A stretch of DNA of 64,000 nucleotides from Nitrospirota bacterium (GTDB lineage: Bacteria > Nitrospirota > Thermodesulfovibrionia > Thermodesulfovibrionales > SM23-35): assembly GCA_040757475.1 (NCBI GenBank), contig JBFLWW010000004.1, positions 31,676 to 95,675 on the forward strand. Direction: 5' to 3'. This document shows, one piece after another, positions 6,190 through 21,121 of the stretch. A program made the translations under genes and the position numbers. The notes under the pieces were generated by a model. That model ran no database searches. It saw nothing but the letters and a program-made list of their open reading frames with translations, and was not told the origin of the DNA. How positions within the stretch are numbered: the first letter of the stretch is position 1; each line of letters starts with the position of its first letter.

Positions 6190-7293
6190 ATGTCAAAGGT
6201 TATTGTTGGAATGAGCGGGGGTGTGGACTCTTCTGTCACAGCATATCTCTTGAAAGAGCATGGATATGATGTAGAAGGTCTCAGCTTTATACTGTGGGAG
6301 GCAAGGGGTAGGACTGACTTTAAGACCTGTTGCTCGCTTCAGGCAGTTGAAGAGACTGCAAATACCGCAAAATATATTGGAGTGCCCCATAGTTCGATAG
6401 ATGTCAGAGATGATTTTATAGAAAAGGTGATAGAGCCATTTGTTGATGCGTACACAAAGGGTATTACTCCAAACCCATGTATACTATGTAACAGATTTAT
6501 CAAGTTTCCCTTTCTCCTGAAGGAGGCAGAAAAAAGAGGTGCTGAATATATCGCCACTGGACACTATGCGAAAGTAGAAAAAAAGTTACTAAAGAAGGGT
6601 GTTGACCCAAAGAAAGACCAGTCGTATGTTCTTTATGTCTTAAGACAGGAGGAGATTGAAAGGCTAATCCTACCTCTCGGTTATTATAGGAAGGATGAAG
6701 TCAGGAAGATTGCAAAGGAGCTTAACCTTCCGGCAGCAAAGAGGCCTGAGAGTCAGGAGATATGCTTTATTGAAGACAGAAATTATTTTAAATTCATTGA
6801 GATGCTTTCTCCTATTGCAGGAAAACCAGGTCCTATCATTGATATAACTGGAAGGGTAATAGGGACACATACAGGAATCTATGGCTATACCATCGGCCAG
6901 AGAAAAGGGCTGGGTATATCTTCACCAGAACCTCTTTATGTTGTAAAGATAGATGCCCTGAAAAATGCCATATATGTGGGTTCTCAGGAGGCTGCAAAGA
7001 AAAAGGAGTTTTTTGTTGAAGACCTGAACTGGATTAACACGCAAGGGGGACTCCGTCCCCCTTGCGAAATCCCCCTACAGCAGAAAGGGGCTCATGGGGG
7101 AAACACTGTTTCCCCCATGTACTTCAGGGCGACTGTAAAGGTGCGCTCTATGATGAAGGATGAGCTAGCAACTATATTTTTAGGCGAGACTGTTCGCGTG
7201 GTCTTTGATAAGCCGCAGTGGGCCCCTGCCCCTGGACAATCCGCAGTCTTCTATGATGGCGATATAGTAATAGGAGGCGGTGTTATAGTATAA
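6190..7293 (+). CDS. mnmA: tRNA 2-thiouridine(34) synthase MnmA
   Basis: PP-loop VIVGMSGGVDSSV, a CNRFIKF motif and the C-terminal PGQSAVFYDGDIVIGGG. It carries an in-frame palindromic insertion (see 7041-7119). Confidence 0.9.
   Translation: MSKVIVGMSGGVDSSVTAYLLKEHGYDVEGLSFILWEARGRTDFKTCCSLQAVEETANTAKYIGVPHSSIDVRDDFIEKVIEPFVDAYTKGITPNPCILCNRFIKFPFLLKEAEKRGAEYIATGHYAKVEKKLLKKGVDPKKDQSYVLYVLRQEEIERLILPLGYYRKDEVRKIAKELNLPAAKRPESQEICFIEDRNYFKFIEMLSPIAGKPGPIIDITGRVIGTHTGIYGYTIGQRKGLGISSPEPLYVVKIDALKNAIYVGSQEAAKKKEFFVEDLNWINTQGGLRPPCEIPLQQKGAHGGNTVSPMYFRATVKVRSMMKDELATIFLGETVRVVFDKPQWAPAPGQSAVFYDGDIVIGGGVIV
7041..7119. repeat. cluster of G5/C5 palindromes inside the mnmA coding sequence
   Basis: The first palindrome is GCAAGGGGGAC-tcc-GTCCCCCTTGC (7041-7065). 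The second is CATGGGGGAAACA-c-TGTTTCCCCCATG (7093-7119). CCCCT…AGGGG lies between them. Confidence 0.75.
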
Positions 7294-11271: not shown

Positions 11272-12012
11272 CTATTCTCCAAGATATGCCTTTCTTACCT
11301 GTTCATTGTTCAGTAGCTCTTCACCTTTGCCCTCAAGTGCTATCCTGCCATTTTCAAGCACATAACCCCTGTTTGAGAGTTTGAGTGCTGCACGGGCATT
11401 CTGTTCGACAAGGAGGACTGTAACCCCTTCTTCATTAATCTCTTTTATCGTCTTGAATATCTTACTCACGATGATAGGGGCAAGGCCGAGGGAAGGTTCA
11501 TCAAGAAGCAGGAGTTTCGGATTAGACATGAGGGCCCTGCCTATTGCGAGCATCTGCTGTTCTCCTCCGCTCAGTGTTCCACCTAATTGCTTATGCCTTT
11601 CTTTTAGGACAGGGAATAATTCAAAAACTTTCTCTAATTGGGTTCTTAGTTGTTGGTTTTTAGTTTTTTGACTCCTGAGTACTGACTCCTGGCTACCGAC
11701 TACCGTATATCCTCCCATCTCAAGATTCTCTCTGACAGTAAGCTTAGGGAATATCCTTCTTCCTTCAGGCACCTGGCTGATACCCATCTCAACAATCCTG
11801 TGTGGAGAAATTCCCCTGATACTTTTTCCTTCAAACAGGATATCGCCTGAGAGAGGTTTCAGGATGCCTGATATCGTCATGAGAGTTGTTGACTTGCCTG
11901 CCCCATTGCTTCCAATGAGACAGACAATCTCCCCATGTTTCACTTCGATATTTATACCCTTTAATGCCTCAATCGGCCCATAGAATGTATGAACATCAAC
12001 AAGCTTTAGCAT
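11272..12012 (-). CDS. livF: branched-chain amino acid ABC transporter ATP-binding protein LivF
   Basis: Walker A GSNGAGKSTT, signature LSGGEQQML and Walker B LLLLDEPS. ATG 12012 lies behind GAGGTGG. There is an extra heptamer-encoded segment at 11645-11706. Confidence 0.9.
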   Translation of the reverse strand: MLKLVDVHTFYGPIEALKGINIEVKHGEIVCLIGSNGAGKSTTLMTISGILKPLSGDILFEGKSIRGISPHRIVEMGISQVPEGRRIFPKLTVRENLEMGGYTVVGSQESVLRSQKTKNQQLRTQLEKVFELFPVLKERHKQLGGTLSGGEQQMLAIGRALMSNPKLLLLDEPSLGLAPIIVSKIFKTIKEINEEGVTVLLVEQNARAALKLSNRGYVLENGRIALEGKGEELLNNEQVRKAYLGE

Positions 12013-12162
12013 AAATACCACCTCATGTAAAGTTTCCTCTTACTTCTTGTGTCGGGTCGAGGATGTCGAAGACGATATCGTCGAGGGCTTTGCGGCCAGG
12101 AAGAGGGTTGAGTTTTTGCTTACAGATAGGTTGGGAGAGTTTGGAGCCAAGATCATGTGTTG

Positions 12163-12588
12163 TCATTTTATTTTTGCAAGGAAATCTCCAGCGGTTATTA
12201 CATTGACAATACTTTTAATTTTGTCAGTAAAGAAATGTGCATCACCGGTTAAAAAATAGTCAGGCTTTACATAAAGAACTGCTGCAAGGACTGGAATGTC
12301 CTTTTTATGAGTTATCATGGATTCAGCATCTTTTAATTTGTGATTATACTTTGCCCGTGGGATAATCGAAATATCAGTCAAGGCTTTTTCTATTTCAGCA
12401 ACAGCAATTTCAAAGGTTCTCTCTTTTAGATATTTCAGCTTTTTTCTTACTACCTTCCGTAATTCATCAACAATATCCTCACTTGTCACAATGTCCAGCT
12501 CGACTAAATCCAGAATCTTTGATTCATTCCCATTAAAGAAAATTCCTGAGAGTAGGATGTTCGTATCAACAAAGACCTTGTATCTCAT
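12163..12588 (-). CDS. PIN-domain toxin (VapC-like)
   Basis: N-terminal VFVDTNILL plus later acidic residues typical of PIN. It overlaps the upstream antitoxin gene by 4 nt. Confidence 0.75.
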   Translation of the reverse strand: MRYKVFVDTNILLSGIFFNGNESKILDLVELDIVTSEDIVDELRKVVRKKLKYLKERTFEIAVAEIEKALTDISIIPRAKYNHKLKDAESMITHKKDIPVLAAVLYVKPDYFLTGDAHFFTDKIKSIVNVITAGDFLAKIK

Positions 12589-12800
12589 TTGCGCATCTTC
12601 TCAAGCTCTTTCAACATCTCTGCCTCTGAGATACCTTCTTTTTTCATAAGCCATCTCAGAAATGCTCTGCTTTTGCGGGCATAAGCCTTTTTGAGCGCTG
12701 ATACAACAGCCTCCGATGCGTCAGAGAATACGCCCAGCTTAATCTCCTCATTAATGTTCCGGTAGATATCCTCTGGAATCTGAGCCACTATTTTAGGCAT
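12585..12800 (-). CDS. ribbon-helix-helix (CopG-like) antitoxin
   Basis: 71 aa. IVAQIPEDIYRNINEEIKLGVFSDASEAVVSALKK fits the RHH pattern. GGAGG lies before the ATG. Confidence 0.55.
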   Translation of the reverse strand: MPKIVAQIPEDIYRNINEEIKLGVFSDASEAVVSALKKAYARKSRAFLRWLMKKEGISEAEMLKELEKMRK

Positions 12801-12944
12801 TTTACACCTCCTTAATATCTAACTTAGCTAATAATAACAGAAACTTTACAGCTTTGCACAATTCACACACACCTTACTTTCTTAAGGTTAAAATAAAAGC
12901 CCAGGTCTCCGCTCTCATCGAGGTATAGATAAAGCATTTATTTC

Positions 12945-13637
12945 TTATGCCCTGCTTAAATGCCTCTCATAAATATCCCTCAAAAACTCATAGCCTCTTA
13001 AGCCATAGATAATGCATATCCTGTTTGCGCTGTCACTCGCTCCGGCATCATAAAGAAATTCCACGATTGACCGTATATCCTTCTGGTCGAAATCTGGGGT
13101 TATCTTCTCAAGCATCTTCAAATAAATGTCCCCGATATATTTAGCTGTTTCTTTGCTATCACCTTTATCTTTGAGACTATCTAAATTCTCTATAAAGAAG
13201 GGTGAATTAAAATCTTCGTGTACATAAGGTACTGATAACATGAGCCATTCATGAGAATCAGCATCAATCTGTGGCAATAATGCGGTCAGTTTTGAAGCAG
13301 ACGATAAAATCTGCTTGTCTTCTTTGGTCAAAGATGCCTCATCTTTGCCTTTATATTTTTCATAGAGATATCTCCAGAACTCGATTATCCTCCCTTTCAT
13401 CTTTTCATTCTCTTCTGAGCTTATTCTCAAATAAGACCTCTGCATCCAGAAAAAGCTAATAATTTCTTTAATGTGTTCGTATTTAAACTTATTAATTATT
13501 CGATTGAATAGACTTTCTGGTTTCTCGATTGACTCATGTCCTCTCAAGTAGGCTAAGGAGATATGTTGTATAAGATGTTCGTTATCACGTTTTTCTCTAA
13601 AATCATAATCAATTCCATACTGATAGTGAGGTCTCAT
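12945..13637 (-). CDS. hypothetical all-alpha protein (230 aa)
   Basis: Long ORF with no recognisable motifs. Its 5' end abuts the livF-fragment junction (~13680), so it may be N-terminally truncated. Confidence 0.45.
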   Translation of the reverse strand: MRPHYQYGIDYDFREKRDNEHLIQHISLAYLRGHESIEKPESLFNRIINKFKYEHIKEIISFFWMQRSYLRISSEENEKMKGRIIEFWRYLYEKYKGKDEASLTKEDKQILSSASKLTALLPQIDADSHEWLMLSVPYVHEDFNSPFFIENLDSLKDKGDSKETAKYIGDIYLKMLEKITPDFDQKDIRSIVEFLYDAGASDSANRICIIYGLRGYEFLRDIYERHLSRA

Positions 13638-13678
13638 TAAATTTGGTAGATAATGTGCCTGTCCCTATTTTGCTGTTT

Positions 13679-13812
13679 CTGAGAGTTGTTGACTTGCCTG
13701 CCCCATTGCTTCCAATAAGACAAACAATCTCCCCTTGCTTTATATCGATATTAATGCCCTTCAGGGCTTCGATAGGACCGTAAAATGTATGAACGTCTGT
13801 AAGTTTTAGCAT
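13679..13812 (-). pseudogene. livF: 5' fragment of a second livF allele (first ~44 codons)
   Basis: MLKLTDVHTFYGPIEALKGINIDIKQGEIVCLIGSNGAGKSTTL, then homology stops abruptly. It is ~84% nt identical to 11879-12012, and the similarity continues ~75 nt upstream of the ATG. Confidence 0.85.
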
Positions 13813-13924
13813 AAATACCACACTGTGTAAAATTTTATCTTACTTCTTATCTATTTTTATTTTCTTCTTGTATCAGCCAAGGACATCGAAAAAACACCTA
13901 CTACAAATCATTACCTTTCAAAAT

Positions 13925-14314
13925 TTAGAACAAAATTTTCCCTTCACCTCCAATAGGCAGCGGTCGAACACGTATGCGAGTCTGTTCAAGGACAACTATG
14001 CTTCCTTGTTTCAAAGACTCTTCAATTGTCGGTAGATTTTTTAAAAGTAATCTAAGTTGATTCTCAGGACGTCTCTCTGAACCTCGTCGAAATAGGATAA
14101 TAGAGGGCTTTATTTCTGTTCTCATAGCAAGGATGGTGCCGAAGTCAGTATCAGTAGATATGATAATCCGCTCTTCTGTAGTGGCCTTATCAAAAATTTC
14201 TTCATCTTCAGCTGTCTGCATTTTATAATCACGAACATGTACAGCATCATGCCCAGCTTCTCGTAATCCTTTTGCTACAAAGGGAGATAAAGCGTTGTCT
14301 ATTAAAAACCTCAT
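13925..14314 (-). CDS. DUF5615-type (PIN-like/Mut7-C-like) toxin
   Basis: [27 protein letters not shown]…ISTDTDFG. It is the usual partner of DUF433 and overlaps it by 4 nt. Confidence 0.7.
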
Positions 14315-14541
14315 GTGGTTACCAAAGGCAATTCTCTTTCACGGATAGCTTCAGCTGCATATTGAAGGGCCTCTCGTATATCTTCTTTCTCCAGGTCAGG
14401 AAAAGCTTTCAAAATCTCTTCTTCGCTCATACCGTCAGCAACCATGCCAACTACAGTTGCAACAGGTATACGTAATCCACGAATACAAGGCACCCCACCC
14501 ATTTGTTTGGGATTAACTGTAATTCTTGTAAATTTCATCAT
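14311..14541 (-). CDS. DUF433-type antitoxin
   Basis: 76 aa. [49 protein letters not shown] is the canonical DUF433 pattern. Confidence 0.75.
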
Positions 14542-14733
14542 CCACCTCCTTTAATATTTTATTACATTCAGGTGCATTCTTCCTACAATCACAACCCCTG
14601 CAAATCATTGCTTTAGTCTACTCCTCCAATAAGCTTTTCCACTTCTTTCTTGGCTTTTTCTAAAAGTTCCTTTGCCTCTTTGCGTGCCTCACCAAATTCT
14701 CCTTTAAAGGCTTTGGATAAGATTGAGTGAGTT

Positions 14734-16485
14734 CTATAATATACAATTACATTTTATTTTCTTATAATCCATCTTAAGGCTACTCCACATTTTCATTGTC
14801 TCTTTACAAAGAGCAACGTTGGAATAATTATATTTTGACTTTAAATGTTCTATTACCGTGGAATACATTGTAAGTCGGGTCTGGAAATCAATCCTTCTGC
14901 CCCAATTAGAGGATTCTCTTAAATACTTAACCCAACTTTTATCTGAACATCCATTTATAGTACTCTGAAGCCCCCTTAAAGACCCTAAAGTAATCCTTTC
15001 TGGGGCAAGATTCTTAAAAATCAAATCTACTAATTGTAAATAAGATTCCTTCCATCCATCTATTGGAACCATCGGGTCTATCCTAATCCGAACCCCATAT
15101 CCTGTTTGATAGAGTTTCTTAGCTACTTCAACTCTCTTCAAAACAGGCGGTGCCTTCTTCTCCCACATTTTGGCAACAGGTATTGCATTGAGACTGAAGC
15201 TTATAATTGCTTGATTATGAGGCTCGATCTCTAAAAGGTTTTTTACATTCGAGGACTTGGTTAAGAATAAGACCTTGTGAATCTTCTGAGTTTCAAAAAT
15301 GGGGATAATAAATTTAGAAAATGGATGTCCTGAATTTTCATGCATTAATGAATCAGCGATTTCGCCTGTATTTAGTATTTCTGGCATCTCTACCTCCTCT
15401 AAAAATCTTCTGGTATGCAGTTCTATTTTCTCATAAGACTTGACCACTGGTTTTGGACCATTTGGGTGAAACCTGAAAGTCCCTTTTAAATAGCACCAAC
15501 TACAATCAAAAGGACATCCATAAGCCCATTTGAGTTCTAGGAAGTGGGGACAGACTACATCAGTTGAATTTGAATTTTCAGGAAAAGGCGTCTTATCAAA
15601 TCTTGTAATTATAGAGCCATCATTGACTCGCTCAACTAATTTTTCAATTCTTCTATTTAAGAGTTTGTAATCTTTGTATATTACTTTCGGTTTGGTAGAA
15701 AGATATACTGCCGAACTCTCGCGCACAAAACCGCCAGGGTTATTATTCAGCGAGAGCTTTATTTGACCTGTAGGAGAAATTTTGCTGATCTCTTTCCAGA
15801 ATTTATGACCCAGCAGGTGTTTACTCGCAAATAGTAGATAGTATAATGGCAGGTTTTTTTGACTGCTCCTTATTAATATCTCATCTCCAGATTTAATTTC
15901 GCTGTAACCAAGTTTGCTAAGGTTACCCTTATAATAATCTATTAGGTTCTTTTCTATGTGGGTAGATGTGAGCTGGCCTATATTTTTGATATCTTTTGGA
16001 AAAAGTTGTCGCCAGTCTTTGTCTCCAATATAATCATCTAAAATACTATGTGACTGTTTTATATATCTTGATAGATTTCTTTTAATATCCATCCCCTCTG
16101 GGAATGTAATAACCAGATCAATCCTTCGGTCTTCGGTCAATTTTTGGAGTGTCTCAAATTTAATATGTAATCCTGTAGGGTCAACAACTGCAAGGCTTAA
16201 CGCCCTCTCTGGTATTTCACTGGCAATATCATCAATTTTTTCATTACAGTCTCCTTGAATTATACTGACTTTATCTTTGATGGGTGATCTCTCAACCCTC
16301 TTTTTTAAAGCATTCACAGCCTCGGAGTCTAACTCAATCATAAAATATCGTTTAAAAGGATATTTAACAGAAAGAGAAATCAATGCTGAGCCATTAATTT
16401 CTTCGGCGGTTTTTCTTACTCTACATTTTCCAGAACCTGCAAATAAATCAATGTAATATAATTCTCCTCTCCATTTATTCTTCAT
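14734..16485 (-). CDS. fusion protein: TcmP-like (three-Cys-motif partner, SAM-MTase-like) N-half plus SplB/DNA-photolyase-like radical-SAM C-half
   Basis: The N-half has YIDLFAGSGKC and VVDPTG. The C-half has WAYGCPFDCSWCYL (CX3CX2C) and RIRIDPMVP. The start ATG overlaps the stop of the small upstream ORF (ATGA). Confidence 0.65.
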   Translation of the reverse strand: MKNKWRGELYYIDLFAGSGKCRVRKTAEEINGSALISLSVKYPFKRYFMIELDSEAVNALKKRVERSPIKDKVSIIQGDCNEKIDDIASEIPERALSLAVVDPTGLHIKFETLQKLTEDRRIDLVITFPEGMDIKRNLSRYIKQSHSILDDYIGDKDWRQLFPKDIKNIGQLTSTHIEKNLIDYYKGNLSKLGYSEIKSGDEILIRSSQKNLPLYYLLFASKHLLGHKFWKEISKISPTGQIKLSLNNNPGGFVRESSAVYLSTKPKVIYKDYKLLNRRIEKLVERVNDGSIITRFDKTPFPENSNSTDVVCPHFLELKWAYGCPFDCSWCYLKGTFRFHPNGPKPVVKSYEKIELHTRRFLEEVEMPEILNTGEIADSLMHENSGHPFSKFIIPIFETQKIHKVLFLTKSSNVKNLLEIEPHNQAIISFSLNAIPVAKMWEKKAPPVLKRVEVAKKLYQTGYGVRIRIDPMVPIDGWKESYLQLVDLIFKNLAPERITLGSLRGLQSTINGCSDKSWVKYLRESSNWGRRIDFQTRLTMYSTVIEHLKSKYNYSNVALCKETMKMWSSLKMDYKKIKCNCIL

Positions 16486-16640
16486 TGCTGCAGTGAAAAT
16501 CTCAAAATACCGCCTAAATAGAAATACTTATCCTTTGCCCAAAGTCCTACGCATCTGACCGGTAAACCATCAGAACCTTTTTGGACATTACATATGCTTT
16601 CAGGGGCATTTTTCTTATAATCACAGTCTCTACAAATCAT
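16482..16640 (-). CDS. small CxxC ORF (52 aa), possibly the frameshifted N-terminus of the downstream fusion gene
   Basis: MICRDCDYKKNAPESICNV…GLWAKDKYFYLGG…. Its ATG overlaps the R-M stop (ATGA) and its TGA overlaps the next ATG. It is below the ORF-track length cutoff. Confidence 0.4.
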   Translation of the reverse strand: MICRDCDYKKNAPESICNVQKGSDGLPVRCVGLWAKDKYFYLGGILRFSLQQ

Positions 16641-18382
16641 TGCTTTTTATAGATATCATCGATCTTTTCTTGCAATTCGACGGTTAACCTAATAGCCTTT
16701 GCAACTTTTATATAATGATTTATCTCATCAAGTGATAATTTTCGACCTTTTCTATCCTTCAAATATTTCTCCATTACCTGATAAGAACCAATACGGTATT
16801 CCCAGACTTCTTTAGAAACTCCCTCAAAATATTGCTTCTTGTTTAGAAAAACCCTCTGGTTAGCTTCATCATAAACGACCTTTTCAACTTTATTTGAGCC
16901 ACCTTCTGGAAAACCGATTTCGGTCCTATCAAGCGACGGATGCTTCAGCAAATGAAGGTCAACAAGTTCTTTCCCAAGATTGCTTAGTTTCTTAAATGAC
17001 TCACGATTTGAAGGCAAAGGGATTCTCGGAAAATCTATCTTGAGAAATTCCTCATATCGTTTCCGGTAAGTCGGAGAATAAAGGATTGCATAAATATAAT
17101 AGAAAATTTGTTCAGGTGTTGGAGACTTCTTAAGGGCTTTTGTTAACTGCTCAATTAATGTGGGAGAAATATTAGGCTTTTTAATATGATATTCTGCCAT
17201 TGGCTCAAAGAGAAGCATAAAGGTTTTGAGTGATTTTTTAGGATTGTCTCTTTTGGTCTCATAAATATAAAGTGGAAAGAAATAATTCTGGTCACCAATT
17301 ATATGTATATCTCCAATATTATTACATACAAAAGCAGGAATTCCAAATGTTTCTGGCATTCTTCTCGTTGTTACTAATCCGATATTTTCCTCAAAAAAGT
17401 TTTTCATTAAATCCCATCTGTCACATCCCCTGTCAATCAAATCTGGCAGATAGCAAATATATCTATTATCAAAAGGGCGATAGGCATATAGTCTGATAAA
17501 GTCTTTCCAGTCAGCCTTCTTTGCCTTTTCTTTTGCGGTGTTTAATTTCCAGTCACGCGTATCTTTTAAATCCAGTGCCTGCCTTATCAGTTCATAAGGC
17601 AAGTTGCTGGTAAAAGTTCTCATCCTCTGTTTGATTTCTTCTCTTGTAAATCCAACAACAAAATGGTCACGGTGAGTTTTCACACCACTCGACCATTCTT
17701 TAAATATCTCAGTCACCTTCCAAAACTTTTCATACTCAGCCTGCAAGGCAAAATCTTTTGGAATAAAGAAATAGTAAGGTGAAACAGGTTCAAGCTCTTG
17801 CCACCGTGTTGTTATCACATCGTTTTCAAAAAGGTATGCATATTTTTCCTTTCTCAGTCCCCAGAGGTCGGCATAATAGACTTTTTTCTTTTTCTGAGAT
17901 TTTTCTAATTTTACATATAAAGCAACAGAAACTCCCTGCTGGATGTCAAAAACATTCTCATCTCTGCCACCTTCAGGGGTCCTTTCTCCGATTCTCGATG
18001 AGCCGTGGAGGTTAAGAATATAAATCTCATCAAAGGCATCTAAAAGCTTTCTCCTCATGCCGCGATGGATTACTCCGGAAAGATAAGAGTTATTGGTAAT
18101 AAAACCTAACACCCCCTTGCCTGCCTGGTTTATCTTCCAGTGGGCAAAGCGGATGAACTTTATATAATCGTCAGAAAGGGGCTGGATATTCCGCTCATCC
18201 CTCACATCCTCTTTATAATCCTCCATCAGTTTTTCGATAAATTCTGACTTATTCTCTGAGCTGACAGAATAGGGAGGATTCCCGAAGATAACAAGGATAG
18301 GGACTTTTTCCTTTATCCTCTTTGCCTCCTGTCCTTCTTTTGCAAGGTCAATAAGAAAACTTACCTGCTTGGGCTCTTTCAT
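16637..18382 (-). CDS. type IIG/ISP-like R-M enzyme, C-terminal part (NPPY catalytic motif plus type-ISP-like specificity domain)
   Basis: VIFGNPPYSVSS (motif IV). C-terminal W-EYRIGSYQVMEKYLKDRKGRKLSLDE tail. It is in the same frame as 18407-19729, separated by one TAA plus 8 sense codons. Confidence 0.8.
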   Translation of the reverse strand: MKEPKQVSFLIDLAKEGQEAKRIKEKVPILVIFGNPPYSVSSENKSEFIEKLMEDYKEDVRDERNIQPLSDDYIKFIRFAHWKINQAGKGVLGFITNNSYLSGVIHRGMRRKLLDAFDEIYILNLHGSSRIGERTPEGGRDENVFDIQQGVSVALYVKLEKSQKKKKVYYADLWGLRKEKYAYLFENDVITTRWQELEPVSPYYFFIPKDFALQAEYEKFWKVTEIFKEWSSGVKTHRDHFVVGFTREEIKQRMRTFTSNLPYELIRQALDLKDTRDWKLNTAKEKAKKADWKDFIRLYAYRPFDNRYICYLPDLIDRGCDRWDLMKNFFEENIGLVTTRRMPETFGIPAFVCNNIGDIHIIGDQNYFFPLYIYETKRDNPKKSLKTFMLLFEPMAEYHIKKPNISPTLIEQLTKALKKSPTPEQIFYYIYAILYSPTYRKRYEEFLKIDFPRIPLPSNRESFKKLSNLGKELVDLHLLKHPSLDRTEIGFPEGGSNKVEKVVYDEANQRVFLNKKQYFEGVSKEVWEYRIGSYQVMEKYLKDRKGRKLSLDEINHYIKVAKAIRLTVELQEKIDDIYKKQ

Positions 18383-18406
18383 CTCTAAGGTATTGGTGAG
18401 ATAGAA

Positions 18407-19729
18407 TTAAAACCTCTCACCCTCTTTGAAGCGATAACCCATCTCTTCGAGAACCATGGAGACCTTGAAATGTCCTACAGTATAAGGAGCAACAAGAATC
18501 TCAAAGGCATGAAAATGGGGCAGAATATGCTCTTCCATGTAAGATTTAATAAGCCCTTCCTTCTTTTTCTCTTCCAGTTCTTTCTGAACCTGTTTGATTG
18601 CCTGAACTACAAATGTGAGAGTTCCAGCAGCAGGGTCAAGGAGAGTTATATCATCTGTGGCAAGTCCTTCGACTTTCCCGAACCTTTCTTTCAACAATTT
18701 ATGAATTGATCTCACAATGTATGAAACAACAGGCAGTGGTGTATAGTAGACCCCTAATCTTTCTCTCTCCTTTGGGTTATAAGTTGCGAGAAAGGTCTCG
18801 TAAAAATGAATTACAGGGTCTTCATCCCATCGAGTGGTCTTGAATTCTTTAAGTATTGAAGAAATCTCCGCTTTTTCAAGAACCTGACTTATATCATCAA
18901 CAATCCATGTTAGTGACTCAGGGAAATGAGGACCTGTCATAGAATGGAATATCTCTTTGAGCAAGGGTAAACTTTCAGGTATGAATTTCCATGCAATCTC
19001 TCTTTTAAACCCGTTTCGAACCTTCATCCTTGCAGCAAAAAGCCCGTAAGTTATTGTCTGTGCATAAAGGTCAGCAAACCTATCTTTTGTCAAAGTTTCT
19101 ATAAGTTCTTCCTGAAAAGCTTTATAAAACCTTGTTACTTCTTCATTTTCTCTTGAAAGCTCATCCTGTAAGATGTGTTCAAGGAATCGAGTTCTCTTTG
19201 CAAGTTGTACGGAAAGGTCAGATGATTTCTGGATCTCAGGAGTTGAGAATAAGAAGAATTTTTGTAAAAGATTAAGAAATGAATCCAATTTTTCAGGGGC
19301 AGGAGGATGTTTCAAACTCTTTAAAGTGAACTGGCGTCCTGCTTCAACCTTATCTATAAGGTTTCCATATCTATATAACCTGAATTCCAGGAAATTCGTT
19401 AAGATAAGGTTTGGTAAAGAATCCCTGTATCTCTTGAGCTGATCTGAATCTTCAATCTCACTGAGGTTTGTATCTGGTGTCTTTGCTTCAATATAGCCTA
19501 TTATTTCACCGTTCTTACCGATACGAAAATCGGGGATGCCTACTTCTGTCTTTCTTGGGAGAACAAGCACACTTGCAAAAGCTTCTAATCTAAAAATATG
19601 TGAAAACTCTTCAAAAAATCTCTTAAGGGTTTGTAGTTCTTCAACTGCTCCACCTGATGCTGGAAGAATTTTAAGCTCTCTTCCGAGAAGGTCTAATAAA
19701 GGTGTAATTGAAGCTAAAGGATTAGGCAT
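18407..19729 (-). CDS. type IIG/ISP-like R-M enzyme, N-terminal part (PD-ExK-like motif plus AdoMet-binding half of the N6-adenine MTase)
   Basis: IPDFRIGKNGEIIGYIEAK (D…EAK), FADLYAQTITYGLFAAR, GVYYTP and LLDPAAGTLTF (motif I). It ends at an in-frame TAA (18407-18409). Confidence 0.8.
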   Translation of the reverse strand: MPNPLASITPLLDLLGRELKILPASGGAVEELQTLKRFFEEFSHIFRLEAFASVLVLPRKTEVGIPDFRIGKNGEIIGYIEAKTPDTNLSEIEDSDQLKRYRDSLPNLILTNFLEFRLYRYGNLIDKVEAGRQFTLKSLKHPPAPEKLDSFLNLLQKFFLFSTPEIQKSSDLSVQLAKRTRFLEHILQDELSRENEEVTRFYKAFQEELIETLTKDRFADLYAQTITYGLFAARMKVRNGFKREIAWKFIPESLPLLKEIFHSMTGPHFPESLTWIVDDISQVLEKAEISSILKEFKTTRWDEDPVIHFYETFLATYNPKERERLGVYYTPLPVVSYIVRSIHKLLKERFGKVEGLATDDITLLDPAAGTLTFVVQAIKQVQKELEEKKKEGLIKSYMEEHILPHFHAFEILVAPYTVGHFKVSMVLEEMGYRFKEGERF

Positions 19730-19759
19730 CGCTTAAAAGTATATCAAATACTCTAACAT

Positions 19760-20280
19760 TATTTTCCATTGTGCCCTTATATGAAATCAAATAGATAATC
19801 ACTTGGATTCTCTTTTGGCCATCCTGAGATATATTCTAAAATTGCATCTGCAATCCCTTTAAAATCATTTAATTTGTAGGACGACGAGACTATCAGTACA
19901 CCTTTCCTGTTCGTCCAATCTCATGCACGCTAATGGCATTTATGCCTTTCTCTCTAAGAATAACTGCTATTTGTGGGCTCAGGTCTTCATCCAGAAGGAG
20001 TTTCATCCCTTCTTCCTAACAAATGGAAGTTCAGAATGAGCGTTCTCTTTACTCCATGCCCTGTTTTTCTCTATCAAACTTTCTGTCTCATCGGGGTATG
20101 TCTTTGCATAGCCGATTGCTGCCATAATCTGTCTGTCGGTGAGCCAGTGAAACGCATCTTTTAATGCCCTGATATCTCTGATGTTAGACTTGAGAAAGTC
20201 TCTTTTTTCATATGTAAAAGACTTTTCACATCAGCTAAGGTCTCTTTGTCTATACGGATACTTTTTACAATGCTCCCCAT
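19760..20280 (-). pseudogene. decayed DUF433/DUF5615 toxin-antitoxin pair
   Basis: From ATG 20280 (GGAGGATAAA upstream) there is a 39-codon ORF. A shifted frame then reads …HWLTDRQIMAAIGYAKTYPDETESLIEKN (DUF433-like). MKLLLDEDLSPQIAVILREKGINAISVHEI follows (DUF5615-like, stop after 37 aa, 19893-20006). Confidence 0.55.
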
Positions 20281-20306
20281 TTTATCCTCCATAAATTGAT
20301 GTATAC

Positions 20307-20329
20307 ATAATATTACATTGTAATATTAT
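20307..20329. promoter_or_regulatory. perfect 11-1-11 palindrome upstream of the decayed TA operon (candidate operator)
   Basis: ATAATATTACA-T-TGTAATATTAT lies 27-49 nt upstream of ATG 20280, directly after the livG stop. Confidence 0.4.
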
Positions 20330-20347
20330 TGCCAAGATGTCTTAGCA

Positions 20348-21121
20348 CTAATGCTCTTTTCCAAGATATGCCTCTATAACCATCTGATCCCTTCTTATAT
20401 TAGCAGGGAGTCCTTCTGCAATCTTTACACCGTGGTCGAGCACAGCAATCCAGTCAGATATTCCCATAACCACCTGCATATCATGCTCTATCAGCAAGAC
20501 CGTCTTGCCGAGCTCTTTTAAATTTTTTATGAGACTCATAATCTCTGATGTCTCCTGGGGGTTCATCCCTGCTGTAGGTTCATCGAGCAATATCAACGAC
20601 GGCTCTGTTGCTAATGCCCTTGCAATCTCCAGCCTTCTCTGCGCACCGTATGGAAGGTTTGCGGAGATTGTATCAGCATAGTCTGATAGACCCACAAGCT
20701 CGAGATATTCGATGGATTTTTCTTTTATAATCTTCTCCTCATCACGAAACTTTTTCCATCGGGTGATCGAACCGATAAGACCTGAATGTGTTCTGTGATG
20801 TTGTGCAACCATCACATTCTCTATAACAGACATCTCTTTAAAAAGTCTAATATTCTGGAATGTCCTTGATATACCGAGCCTGACAATGCTATGTGGTGGA
20901 AGTCCGGTAAGGTTAGTATTAGAGAAATAGATTCTCCCTTTTGTGGGTTTTGTAAGTCCAGTGAGGCAGTTAAAGATTGTTGTCTTACCTGCACCATTTG
21001 GCCCTATGATGCTCATTATGATACCCTCTTTTACCCTGAAGCTCACCTCTTCAACAGCCTTTATTCCGCCGAAGTGTTTTGATAAATCCCTAACTTCTAA
21101 GAGATACACCTTTACCTCCAA
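20348..21121 (-). CDS. livG: branched-chain amino acid ABC transporter ATP-binding protein LivG
   Basis: Walker A GPNGAGKTT, signature LPYGAQRRLEIA, Walker B LILLDEPTAG and the LivG-specific extra segment. Confidence 0.9.
   Translation of the reverse strand: MEVKVYLLEVRDLSKHFGGIKAVEEVSFRVKEGIIMSIIGPNGAGKTTIFNCLTGLTKPTKGRIYFSNTNLTGLPPHSIVRLGISRTFQNIRLFKEMSVIENVMVAQHHRTHSGLIGSITRWKKFRDEEKIIKEKSIEYLELVGLSDYADTISANLPYGAQRRLEIARALATEPSLILLDEPTAGMNPQETSEIMSLIKNLKELGKTVLLIEHDMQVVMGISDWIAVLDHGVKIAEGLPANIRRDQMVIEAYLGKEH

Follow-up and report, generated by a model that had tools for sequence, protein, structure and literature searches.

An island of toxin-antitoxin and defense genes interrupts the livH-livM-livG-livF operon of a Nitrospirota metagenome-assembled genome (MAG), and within it lies a diverged second copy of the first 44 codons of livF. 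We conclude that this copy, livF′, is probably the 5′ part of a livF allele of another lineage, now orphaned and non-functional; it would have hitch-hiked with island DNA into an island built by recombination and been cut off there at an illegitimate junction. Positions refer to the window, the whole stretch of 64,000 nt that was analyzed. All sequences compared with it are metagenome assemblies; close relatives were found by protein search and contig look-ups, and the sister strain by homology search and cluster listing.

The resident gene is identified as livF by its ABC_tran domain with a BCA_ABC_TP_C tail and by its place as the last gene of livH-livM-livG-livF, all on the same strand. It runs from an ATG at 12012 to a stop at 11272–11274, and its product (P0001) is annotated in the NCBI record of the MAG as a Nitrospirota ABC ATP-binding protein, as are those of its relatives, in which acylphosphatase and bioB also follow livF as they do here. 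The features that define the insertion are:

11272–12012, minus strand: functional livF, 246 aa (Pfam ABC_tran, 1.6e-33, and BCA_ABC_TP_C), with an alternative GTG start at 12021
12013–20338, minus strand: the whole island, 8.3 kb, inserted into the first ~10–18 nt of livF
20339–20348, minus strand: 10 nt left over from the native livF start (GTGCTAAGAC), in overlap with the livG stop; L082 has cattaATGCTTAGAC there
20348–21121, minus strand: livG (ABC_tran and BCA_ABC_TP_C in the 98%-identical L170)

A 92%-identical relative, L082, has an empty site at which the livG stop overlaps the livF ATG. It aligns to 21606→20339 and 11994→9902 of the window and to nothing between, with homology breaking at 20339 and 11994. 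Beyond a short leading stretch the functional gene is native: from about nt 19 on it is 92% identical to L082, the same as the flanks, and only its ribosome-binding site (RBS) and first ~10–18 nt are borne by the island. Other relatives carry short spacers at livG|livF (L083, L085, and L167) or other cargo directly upstream of livF (L166, L168, and L169); L170 also has other cargo, and L169 has the left end of the island in common at 87% identity. With conserved flanks, an empty site, and cargo that differs among relatives and in the sister strain, the livG|livF position is, as judged from these contigs, a hotspot in this Nitrospirota clade.

A repeat search of the window returned one direct-repeat family, 11880–12048 against 13680–13848 (169 nt, 82% identity, spacing 1,800). 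As livF is a minus-strand gene, the repeat is coding over 12012→11880 and 13812→13680:

11880–12048, minus strand: repeat copy 1, livF nt 1–133 plus 36 nt upstream with the RBS GAGGTGG
13680–13848, minus strand: repeat copy 2, truncated livF′ (codons 1–44) plus 36 nt upstream; absent from sister strain L170
12049–12074, minus strand: weak continuation of the repeat upstream (47-aa ORF, 3′ end); its counterpart in a gapped alignment is 13849–13893

The preliminary description had recognized a repeated livF 5′ end of 44 codons, and the computed alignment bears this out. Its count of 23 differences also stands for the coding part, the correct denominator being 132 coding nt and not 143, but its claim that some 75 nt of upstream sequence are repeated does not hold: the cleanly repeated upstream part is 36 nt long (29/36 identical) and includes GGTGGTATTTATG, past which the gapped alignment finds only a weak similarity of ~20 nt, beyond a 20-nt indel. 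The 23 differences fall 3/1/19 over codon positions 1/2/3, comprise 16 transitions and 7 transversions, and lead to four residue changes, V5T, E23D, V24I, and H26Q, confirmed to be conservative. Nei-Gojobori estimates are dN 0.056 and dS 1.06 (dN/dS 0.053), and both the excess of third-position changes (p = 1.7e-6) and the deficit of non-synonymous ones (p = 4e-8) are significant. Substitutions are thus uneven over codon positions, and the earlier view that the copies diverged as functional genes, not as a decaying local duplicate, is upheld; the substitution pattern supports reading them as alleles that diverged while functional.

The fragment itself is no complete ATPase. Its homology is limited to codons 1–44, after which the frame runs into unrelated sequence and continues as a 70-aa ORF (13821→13609). 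With no more than 44 codons left, its best NCBIfam match, LivF, scores 45.9 bits, far below the cutoff of 441, and the stub by itself has no function. Two copies that share orientation and register at a distance of 1.8 kb might suggest that the livF 5′ end was duplicated locally in this genome and that the extra copy then decayed. Against this, a dN/dS of 0.05 with 83% of changes at third positions is found in a 44-codon stub that cannot be under selection, and over nt 19–96 the copies diverge by 23% (18/78), more than from the 92%-identical relative. In trees of both copies with relatives, as proposed earlier, they were sisters in 0 of 1,000 bootstrap replicates (counts of the exact split). 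Local duplication is already refuted by the tests that the preliminary description proposed, and we give it a negligible probability.

In the trees, copy 1 lies closest to the sister strain and to L082, the relative with the empty site, and copy 2 closest to other lineages. Among the 78 sites of nt 19–96, copy 1 differs from L170 at 5, from L082 at 8, and from L166 at 9, as against 18 from copy 2, which itself differs from L167 at 12 and from L083 at 14; bootstrap support for pairing copy 2 with L167 is 40–48%. That even the nearest relatives of the stub differ at 12–14 of 78 sites counts against reading it as an orphaned foreign allele. The donor lineage was not found: a protein search with the 44-aa stub gave short ABC fragments only, its N-terminus has no exact match among 118 relatives, and D23 and I24 occur in none of the 118. 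Genome and metagenome scans with the livF protein gave relatives of at most 71% identity among the matches listed, which share generic ABC motifs. We also considered and rejected an origin of the stub from a paralogue: the window holds no second livF-like N-terminus, and the stub carries the island-type 36 nt upstream and groups inside the orthologue clade.

Divergence between the copies is unevenly distributed. The last 37 nt of the repeat, in the Walker A region, are 100% identical and encode IGSNGAGKSTTL, with 0/37 differences as compared to 18/78 in nt 19–96 (Fisher p = 6e-4):

11880–11916, minus strand: 37-nt block in copy 1, Walker A region, identical to 13680–13716
13680–13716, minus strand: the 37-nt block in copy 2, where it forms the truncated end, identical to 11880–11916

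The preliminary description makes no mention of this identity. Other lineages differ from the block at 2–13 of its 37 positions, and the empty-site and spacer-bearing relatives at 5–8. Because the block is identical, recombination between the repeats, excising the bracketed segment, is possible in principle, as judged from the sequence.

Immediately beyond the block, at 13679/13680, livF′ meets the remains of another gene:

12945–13649, minus strand: 3′ remnant of a Dsr1-like defense gene (ORF 13637→12945, 230 aa; PADLOC Dsr1 PDLC04166)

The ORF matches positions 1014–1223 of the 1,227-position PADLOC profile (E = 1.3e-43), so that the last 17% of the gene is left, and it is no full-length Dsr1, a defense-associated sirtuin of ~1,200 residues with an N-terminal part. 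Its homologues continue N-terminally for 165 residues or more and stay collinear with the profile; tblastn homology to the Dsr1-like gene begins at 13649, and the window contains nothing homologous to the upstream part of the longer homologues. Since the inner end of the fragment abuts this 3′ remnant, both genes are truncated at one junction. Import by homologous recombination within livF, as first suggested, needs amending here, the inner end of the fragment not being a clean homologous joint.

Such a junction might also be an artifact, two co-occurring strains having been joined at their common 37-nt block by the metagenome assembler. Two island haplotypes do occur in adjacent runs of one study (SRR29635772, window type; SRR29635773, sister type), and a Logan contig breaks within the block. 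This contig, L081, is however an independent assembly and is 100% identical to the window across the block, the Dsr1-like remnant, the PIN gene, and the livF start; the livF′/Dsr1-like junction has no sequence overlap able to mislead an assembler, and the block is resolved by reads far longer than 37 nt. The side of the junction from block to Dsr1-like remnant is found in both the MAG and L081, and the link from the first 96 nt of the stub to the block in the MAG alone. A chimera is very improbable.

The remainder of the livF-proximal island is a series of small genes, listed here together with the pair that lies immediately upstream of livF′ in the direction of the operon:

12023–12166, minus strand: 47-aa ORF, its 3′ end within the upstream repeat; interrupted by an IS in the sister strain
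12163–12588, minus strand: PIN-domain toxin (Pfam PIN_2, 1e-9, and PIN_3; NCBIfam TIGR00305)
12585–12800, minus strand: 71-aa ORF in antitoxin position that overlaps the PIN start; its sister-strain counterpart is 99% identical
13925–14541, minus strand: DUF433/DUF5615 toxin-antitoxin pair (Pfam 9e-26 and 6e-27)

An RHH label given earlier to the 71-aa ORF finds no profile support; it has no match in Pfam, NCBIfam, or PADLOC, even at E = 1. All island genes are co-oriented with the operon, and the island has a GC content of 0.35–0.41 against 0.41–0.44 in the flanks. Pfam, NCBIfam, and PADLOC identified no tyrosine or serine recombinase and no transposase among all ORFs of 12.0–20.3 kb, and the flanks are livG and livF; no tRNA, Rfam element, or other RNA att site lies near the island, and a scan for promoters and terminators gave counts at chance level. 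Orphaned, truncated pieces mark the junctions between blocks: the 133-nt livF′, the 10-nt native start remnant, the C-terminal Dsr1-like remnant, 5′ remnants of a 52-aa ORF at 14609 and 13912, and an N-terminal DUF5615 remnant (20006→19893). Three livF starts are nested at one locus: what is left of the native one at the livG stop, that of the foreign stub, and the one in use, with its island RBS.

Comparison with the sister strain (L170–L173), which is 98% identical and 98–99% identical in the flanks, bears on the import of the stub. The sister strain has the island but neither livF′ nor the 230-aa ORF, and its 71-aa ORF, PIN gene, 47-aa ORF, and livF are 99% identical to those of the window. 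Two segments set the haplotypes apart:

12873–13901, minus strand: segment with livF′ and the Dsr1-like remnant; the sister strain L170 has DUF4258/DUF2283 instead
12873–17591, minus strand: divergent tract of 4.7 kb between flanks of 97–99% identity; compared with the sister strain it is either unalignable or reaches ~90% identity

Through the type IIG gene, identity between the two haplotypes falls at ~17591 from 97.5% to 90% or to unalignable sequence, and it returns abruptly to 99% at 12872; the sister strain lacks 13901→12873 and retains 12872→12039. The earlier proposal that one copy was imported with island DNA gains support from the position of the fragment inside this divergent tract, with the amendment that the foreign piece is the truncated upstream fragment and the resident gene is native from ~nt 19. 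The repeats do bracket 12049–13679, as had been noted, but not a coherent sub-island, the sister strain keeping the 71-aa ORF, PIN gene, and 47-aa ORF without the fragment or the 230-aa ORF.

Integrative elements may bring a replacement gene end between attL and attR repeats, and their tandem accretion leaves cis-mobilizable elements (ICESt1/CIME type). An identical block at a repeat edge that restores a gene end is also the expected look of a site-specific att core, and the repeats could accordingly be attL and attR of such an element, or of a cis-mobilizable remnant of tandem accretion, that targets the livF Walker A block and keeps livF intact with a substitute 5′ end. The likenesses are several: diverged direct repeats derive from a gene end, the identical core (37/37) sits exactly at the inner edge of both, divergence rises away from it, the repeat gives back an RBS and gene start, blocks lie in tandem, islands occupy the livG|livF site in several lineages, and the nested livF starts resemble successive integrations. 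The island departs from this type, however, in having no integrase, other recombinase, or transposase in or beside it, in a bounded segment that begins with the truncated Dsr1-like gene and not with an element end, and in strain variation that does not follow the repeat boundaries, the sister strain lacking the stub while keeping most of the bounded segment. Moreover, the outer boundaries of the island relative to the empty site of L082 lie at livF nt ~10–18 and not at the block, which is itself not conserved in the empty-site or spacer-bearing relatives. We consider site-specific integration decidedly unlikely.

A mobile unit might also dispense with a recombinase. A circle composed of the Dsr1-like remnant, the 71-aa ORF, the PIN gene, the 47-aa ORF, and the 169-nt livF 5′ segment could have entered by one RecA-mediated, Campbell-type crossover with the livF 5′ end, and could leave likewise. 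Direct repeats flank this block in register, so that its deletion would leave livF intact, and 37 nt of perfect identity are sufficient for RecA-type exchange. The island also has a second direct repeat (48 nt, 83%; 14567–14614 and 16599–16646), and the block it brackets is absent from the sister strain, which has a hybrid-looking single site. The k=31 assembly L081 (a 1,823-nt Logan contig) shows the unit as a 1.8-kb loop with ends overlapping by 23 nt, but this is what any assembler yields at a 37-nt repeat; we rejected L081 as an excised circle, since a k=31 assembler must break in such a repeat. The order of the alleles fits poorly as well, as after a crossover in the block the foreign 5′ end would be the one that the chromosome had before, and the native-like one that of the element, and in the sister strain the right-hand part of the unit is contiguous with livF and has no repeat. 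Entry as a circle is, on this evidence, quite unlikely.

We instead favor an origin of the stub in which the island was built and remodeled, inside the livF start and without a recombinase, by recombination of incoming DNA. One end of such DNA would be anchored in conserved sequence, either livF itself, the type IIG gene, or shared cassettes, and the other joined illegitimately; with one end of each kind, old gene ends would be pushed aside and not removed. The second direct repeat of the island (48 nt), with a bracketed block that the sister strain lacks, shows this signature once more and speaks for the same account. The stub may have come with the divergent 4.7-kb tract that now lies on the livG side of it (window 13849–17591), or may once have been a chimeric working 5′ end after such an import. 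A one-sided illegitimate joint with the Dsr1-like gene, facilitated by homology, would then have severed it from the remainder of livF. The identity of its last 37 nt would record either the crossover in this history or a subsequent short-patch gene conversion by the resident copy at a distance of 1.8 kb. No single event accounts for all of these features: the 37-nt block needs an extra step, whether an earlier crossover or a later conversion, and two or more events are required to explain how the window and the sister strain differ.

A more regular version of this history is conceivable, though we think it unlikely. The livF 5′ end and a short portable adapter of RBS and start codon may serve as a recombinase-free landing pad, where each incoming defense or toxin-antitoxin block brings its own adapter and livF start, recombines with the resident gene, and pushes the previous start upstream; the repeat-bracketed blocks (1.8 kb and 2.0 kb) could in addition loop out and be mobile as RecA-dependent units. 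If so, defense genes could pile up in a housekeeping operon without silencing its last gene, in what would be, for operon-embedded defense islands in Nitrospirota, a mirror image of Rhs/T6SS C-terminal displacement.

Defense islands between conserved core genes, without mobility genes, are common, and their route of exchange is mostly a matter of inference. The scar at livF is of a known kind, and its mechanism is not new; analogues of both island architecture and mechanism have been published (PMC5361080, PMC10250203). Sequential displacement arrays are known from the T6SS clusters of Vibrio cholerae, with their orphan effector 3′ ends and immunity genes, and from the C-terminal displacement of Rhs; once established, such arrays are passed on by ordinary homologous recombination (Kirchberger et al. 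2017, PMC5361080). As in those arrays, a module entering at livF would pair by homology with a conserved gene at one end and be joined illegitimately at the other, displaced gene pieces survive further along as orphans, the arrays of close strains differ, and there is no dedicated recombinase (PMC5361080). Unlike there, the anchor is downstream, and the orphan is a 5′ end with its RBS pushed upstream and not a 3′ toxin tip pushed downstream; the cargo consists of defense and toxin-antitoxin genes in place of effector-immunity pairs, and the host gene is a housekeeping transporter subunit in an operon. In Pseudomonas aeruginosa, the core defense hotspots cDHS1 and cDHS2 have conserved core-gene flanks, and transfer by recombination in these has been proposed (Johnson et al. 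2023, PMC10250203). They share with livG|livF fixed core-gene flanks, cargo that varies even between close isolates, and frequently the lack of a mobility gene, but the hotspot described here sits inside an operon and, more closely, among the opening codons of a gene, where the island must supply an RBS and start codon, and it preserves a hitch-hiked piece of the flanking gene, direct evidence of flank-mediated exchange. Homology-facilitated illegitimate recombination, as outlined for transformable bacteria (de Vries & Wackernagel 2002 and Prudhomme et al. 2002, cited in PMC5361080; PMC3240628), likewise combines one homologous anchor with one illegitimate joint, trapping foreign DNA and truncating whatever lies at the joint; in contrast to those systems, we infer it here from sequence alone, in an uncultured Nitrospirota bacterium.

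What distinguishes the locus is that a piece of the donor's flanking gene was left in the island, with a substitution pattern that indicates divergence as a working gene in another lineage. The stub, the native start remnant, the doubly truncated junction, and patchy mosaicism in livF together constitute direct evidence, at the level of sequence, that such islands grow by flank-anchored recombination with illegitimate ends. An island can evidently sit in an operon, in the first codons of a gene, given a replacement ribosome-binding site and start codon, and the locus provides a clear worked example and a marker (livG|livF) for defense cargo in this Nitrospirota clade. The mosaicism is apparent against the sister-strain contig L171, in which 21 of the 26 differences from the window fall in three patches within the resident livF, a pattern that we read as recombination in livF.

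A repeat search of the region returned a single strong family of direct repeats, at 11880-12048 and 13680-13848 (169 nt, 82% identity, spacing 1800 nt). Read along the gene, each copy holds 36 nt from upstream of livF and then livF nt 1-133; copy 1 is the 5′ end of the working gene and copy 2 a stub, livF′. Between livG and livF lies ~8.3 kb of lower GC (0.35-0.41 vs 0.41-0.44 in the flanks), an island whose genes are all co-oriented with the liv operon. Along the operon, the order begins with a degenerate DUF433/DUF5615 pair, a type IIG gene, a 52-aa ORF, and a TcmP/spore-photoproduct-lyase-like gene, and continues with an intact DUF433/DUF5615 pair, the livF stub, a 230-aa ORF, a 71-aa ORF, a PIN toxin, a 47-aa ORF, and the working livF.

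Features of the liv operon and island (window coordinates)
23098 to 22181, minus strand: livH
22184 to 21090, minus strand: livM
21121 to 20348, minus strand: livG
20006 to 19893, minus strand: DUF5615 N-terminal remnant of the degenerate DUF433/DUF5615 pair
16637-19729, minus strand: type IIG restriction-modification gene (PADLOC), with one in-frame TAA
just before the 583-aa gene (4-nt overlap), minus strand: 52-aa Cys-rich ORF
14734-16640 (with the 52-aa ORF), minus strand: 583-aa TcmP/spore-photoproduct-lyase-like protein (Pfam, NCBIfam, PADLOC)
ATG at 12012, stop at 11272-11274, minus strand: working livF

The in-frame TAA (18407-18409) leaves type IIG ORFs of 440 and 581 aa, and the 583-aa protein, a match to the PADLOC candidate PDC-M41A, joins a TcmP (three-Cys-motif partner) domain to a spore-photoproduct-lyase-like radical-SAM domain. 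Pfam, NCBIfam, and PADLOC profiles detected no integrase or transposase among the island ORFs, and no tRNA or Rfam family lies near the island. The 71-aa ORF, labeled RHH in the preliminary description, which a model had drawn from the sequence alone, matched no such profile, leaving that label unsupported. The best sigma-70-like match in the entire island region (TTGGCA-17-TATTAT, 10/12, 20307-20335, minus strand) sits at the island's left end and points along the operon; promoter-like counts overall are at chance level.

Over their 44 common codons, the two livF copies differ at 23 positions, distributed 3/1/19 across codon positions 1/2/3, with four conservative residue changes (V5T, E23D, V24I, H26Q); the totals of 23 differences and four conservative changes agree with the first count. 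The purifying selection then read from this pattern is borne out by Nei-Gojobori estimates (dN = 0.056, dS = 1.06, dN/dS = 0.053), an excess of third-position changes (19 of 23; p = 1.7e-6), and a deficit of replacement changes (p = 4e-8). The stub's divergence must have arisen inside a complete, selected gene of another lineage. Upstream of the start, 29 of 36 nt are identical (copy 1 carries GAGGTGGTATTTATG here), and beyond these ~20 nt more align weakly if a 20-nt indel is allowed, so the earlier figure of about 75 nt was too generous. The Shine-Dalgarno sequence is weaker in the stub (AGTGTGG vs GAGGTGG), whose frame (13821 to 13609, minus strand) runs for 70 codons before a stop and terminates 29 nt into the 230-aa ORF.

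We compared both copies with the livF genes of relatives, including a sister strain (L170-L173) known from another MAG and from two Logan contigs.

Differences over livF nt 19-96
copy 1 vs sister strain (L170): 5/78
copy 1 vs L082, a relative with an empty site: 8/78
copy 1 vs L166, a further relative: 9/78
copy 1 vs copy 2: 18/78
copy 2 vs L167, a further relative: 12/78
copy 2 vs L083, a further relative: 14/78

In neighbor-joining trees copy 1 groups with the sister strain and copy 2 weakly with L167, and the two copies, as had been predicted, are not closest relatives (sisters in 0/1000 bootstraps). A local duplication of the livF 5′ end is thus scarcely credible, refuted by the 3/1/19 split and by these bootstraps, the very tests first proposed. 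Copy 1 moreover runs on into the remainder of livF at flank-level identity (92% vs L082). Together, these results identify the stub as the foreign piece; the proposed import of one copy therefore stands, with the qualification that the foreign allele is truncated and the working copy flank-like. The stub groups within the orthologue clade and has island-type upstream sequence, which, in the window and its relatives, argues against a distant-paralogue origin.

The Logan contig L082, 91-92% identical to the window, has the empty site: in it, the stop codon of livG overlaps the start of livF (cattaATGCTTAGAC), with the same genes following downstream. BLAST matches to the window span 21606 to 20339 and 11994 to 9902 with nothing between, indicating that the island as a whole was inserted within the first ~10-18 nt of livF. 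By this comparison, the native livF start persists on the livG stop as a 10-nt remnant (GTGCTAAGAC, 20348 to 20339), and the working livF's ribosome-binding site and first codons are island-borne.

The sister strain, with flanks 98-99% identical to the window, carries another version of the island; adjacent runs of one study yielded both haplotypes. Between ~17591, which falls within the type IIG gene, and 12873, the two versions either cannot be aligned or are only ~90% identical. The sister strain lacks the 52-aa ORF and TcmP/SPL-like gene, and a DUF4258/DUF2283 pair replaces the stub and 230-aa ORF (13901 to 12873). The two strains match at 99% identity in the 71-aa ORF, PIN gene, 47-aa ORF, 36-nt upstream sequence, and livF. 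The stub is therefore strain specific, within a divergent tract, and the varying unit is not the repeat-bracketed segment that had been regarded as a sub-island, since three of its ORFs persist where stub and 230-aa ORF are missing. In the sister strain, the type IIG gene is interrupted in another way, into pieces of 162, 642, and 165 aa, and 17145-17591, taken as the target-recognition part, is unalignable between these 98%-identical strains. The sister's 47-aa ORF contains a DDE_Tnp_1 insertion sequence (L170 8887-9690; L173 10478-11281), 43 nt before the livF start, splitting livF from the PIN cassette and retaining the 36-nt upstream sequence.

At the inner end of the stub, two unrelated genes are cut at one joint. 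The 230-aa ORF aligns to positions 1014-1223 of the PADLOC Dsr1 profile (1227 positions; E = 1.3e-43), and its homologues continue N-terminally for another 165 residues or more, in line with the profile; that upstream part has no counterpart in the window. Dsr1-like homology starts at 13649 and the stub ends at 13680, so both genes stop here, and the doubly cut joint marks an illegitimate joint or deletion, not the end of an element. Misassembly of this region is very unlikely: the stub's 5′ link to the final block of the repeat is seen in the MAG alone, but an independent assembly (L081) is identical across the joint between block and Dsr1 remnant. That 1.8-kb Logan contig has overlapping ends, and we rejected it as a circle in favor of an assembler break in the repeat.

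The block, which makes up the repeat's final 37 nt, encodes the Walker A region and is identical at 37/37 positions between copies (vs livF nt 19-96, Fisher p = 6e-4), a feature that the preliminary description did not mention. Other lineages differ at 2-13 of these positions, so it is not simply invariant, and identity at the truncated end means that the stub is chimeric or was converted by the resident copy. If a site-specific element had its att core in this block, that would account for the identical edge and for a repeat that restores the gene; such an element is nonetheless improbable, given the absence of a recombinase among the island ORFs, a boundary holding a truncated gene, outer island boundaries at livF nt 10-18, and a sister-strain pattern that does not fit. 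A RecA-dependent circle integrated through a single crossover is doubtful too, since under it the native and foreign 5′ ends would be swapped unless extra events are added.

We favor a history in which the island was built through successive imports, each with a homology anchor in a conserved gene and an illegitimate joint at its closing end, so that earlier gene ends would be displaced and retained as orphans. In one version, a foreign tract had its anchor in the type IIG gene, ended inside the donor's livF, and may have been joined into a resident Dsr1-like gene, the resident livF copy later converting the block. Alternatively, a foreign island may have replaced the resident one by a crossover in the block, creating a chimeric working livF, followed by sibling-strain DNA anchored in livF and downstream, with an illegitimate joint at nt 133. 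Under both histories, the stub is a functionless scar.

In more distant relatives (L083, L085, L167) livG-livF spacers are short (31-177 nt). Directly upstream of livF, L166 encodes a TnsA-like protein (2041-2409) and L168 a DUF4926 protein (160-396); in L169, DUF5615, a 1089-aa methyltransferase, and SocA_Panacea (6671-7228, directly upstream) precede it. This differing cargo marks the livG/livF junction as a recurrent island site in the clade. The island's left end is common to L169 and the window at 87% identity: the degenerate DUF433/DUF5615 remnant (19632-20167) matches L169 6-656, the island otherwise being different and livF 86% identical, which suggests a conserved island end module. 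L166 and L169 share another ~30-nt sequence before the livF ATG (AAGAATTATCTTGGCACAT..), implying at least two "adapter" types.

The closest architectures are orphan arrays from sequential displacement, in V. cholerae T6SS clusters (PMC5361080) and Rhs loci; core-gene-flanked defense hotspots without mobility genes (PMC10250203) are also similar. What sets our locus apart is how it is oriented and where it sits: its anchor gene lies downstream, so the orphaned pieces are 5′ ends with ribosome-binding sites, and the site falls within an operon, in a gene's first codons. The locus adds one more case to a known kind, and no new mechanism is indicated. Its interest is an unusually legible record, with three nested livF starts and a doubly truncated joint, and with the sister strain and the empty site available for comparison.

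Along with the identical block, differences between the window and sister contig L171 over 2.1 kb indicate that recombination often acts on livF: 21 of 26 lie inside livF (11272-12012 vs L171 6696-7436), in three short patches (nt 69-108, 162-258, and 666-700), which suggests repeated short-patch recombination; the downstream sequence is otherwise ~99.7% identical. The island also holds a second diverged direct-repeat pair (14567-14614 and 16599-16646; 48 nt, 83%, spacing 2032), composed of the type IIG gene's last bases and ~40 nt from the start of the 52-aa ORF. Between its copies lies exactly the block that the sister strain lacks, the 52-aa ORF plus the TcmP/SPL-like gene; one hybrid-looking site remains there in the sister (L170 6482-6560). 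A third, shorter copy (13894-13917) lies at the strain breakpoint beside the livF stub.
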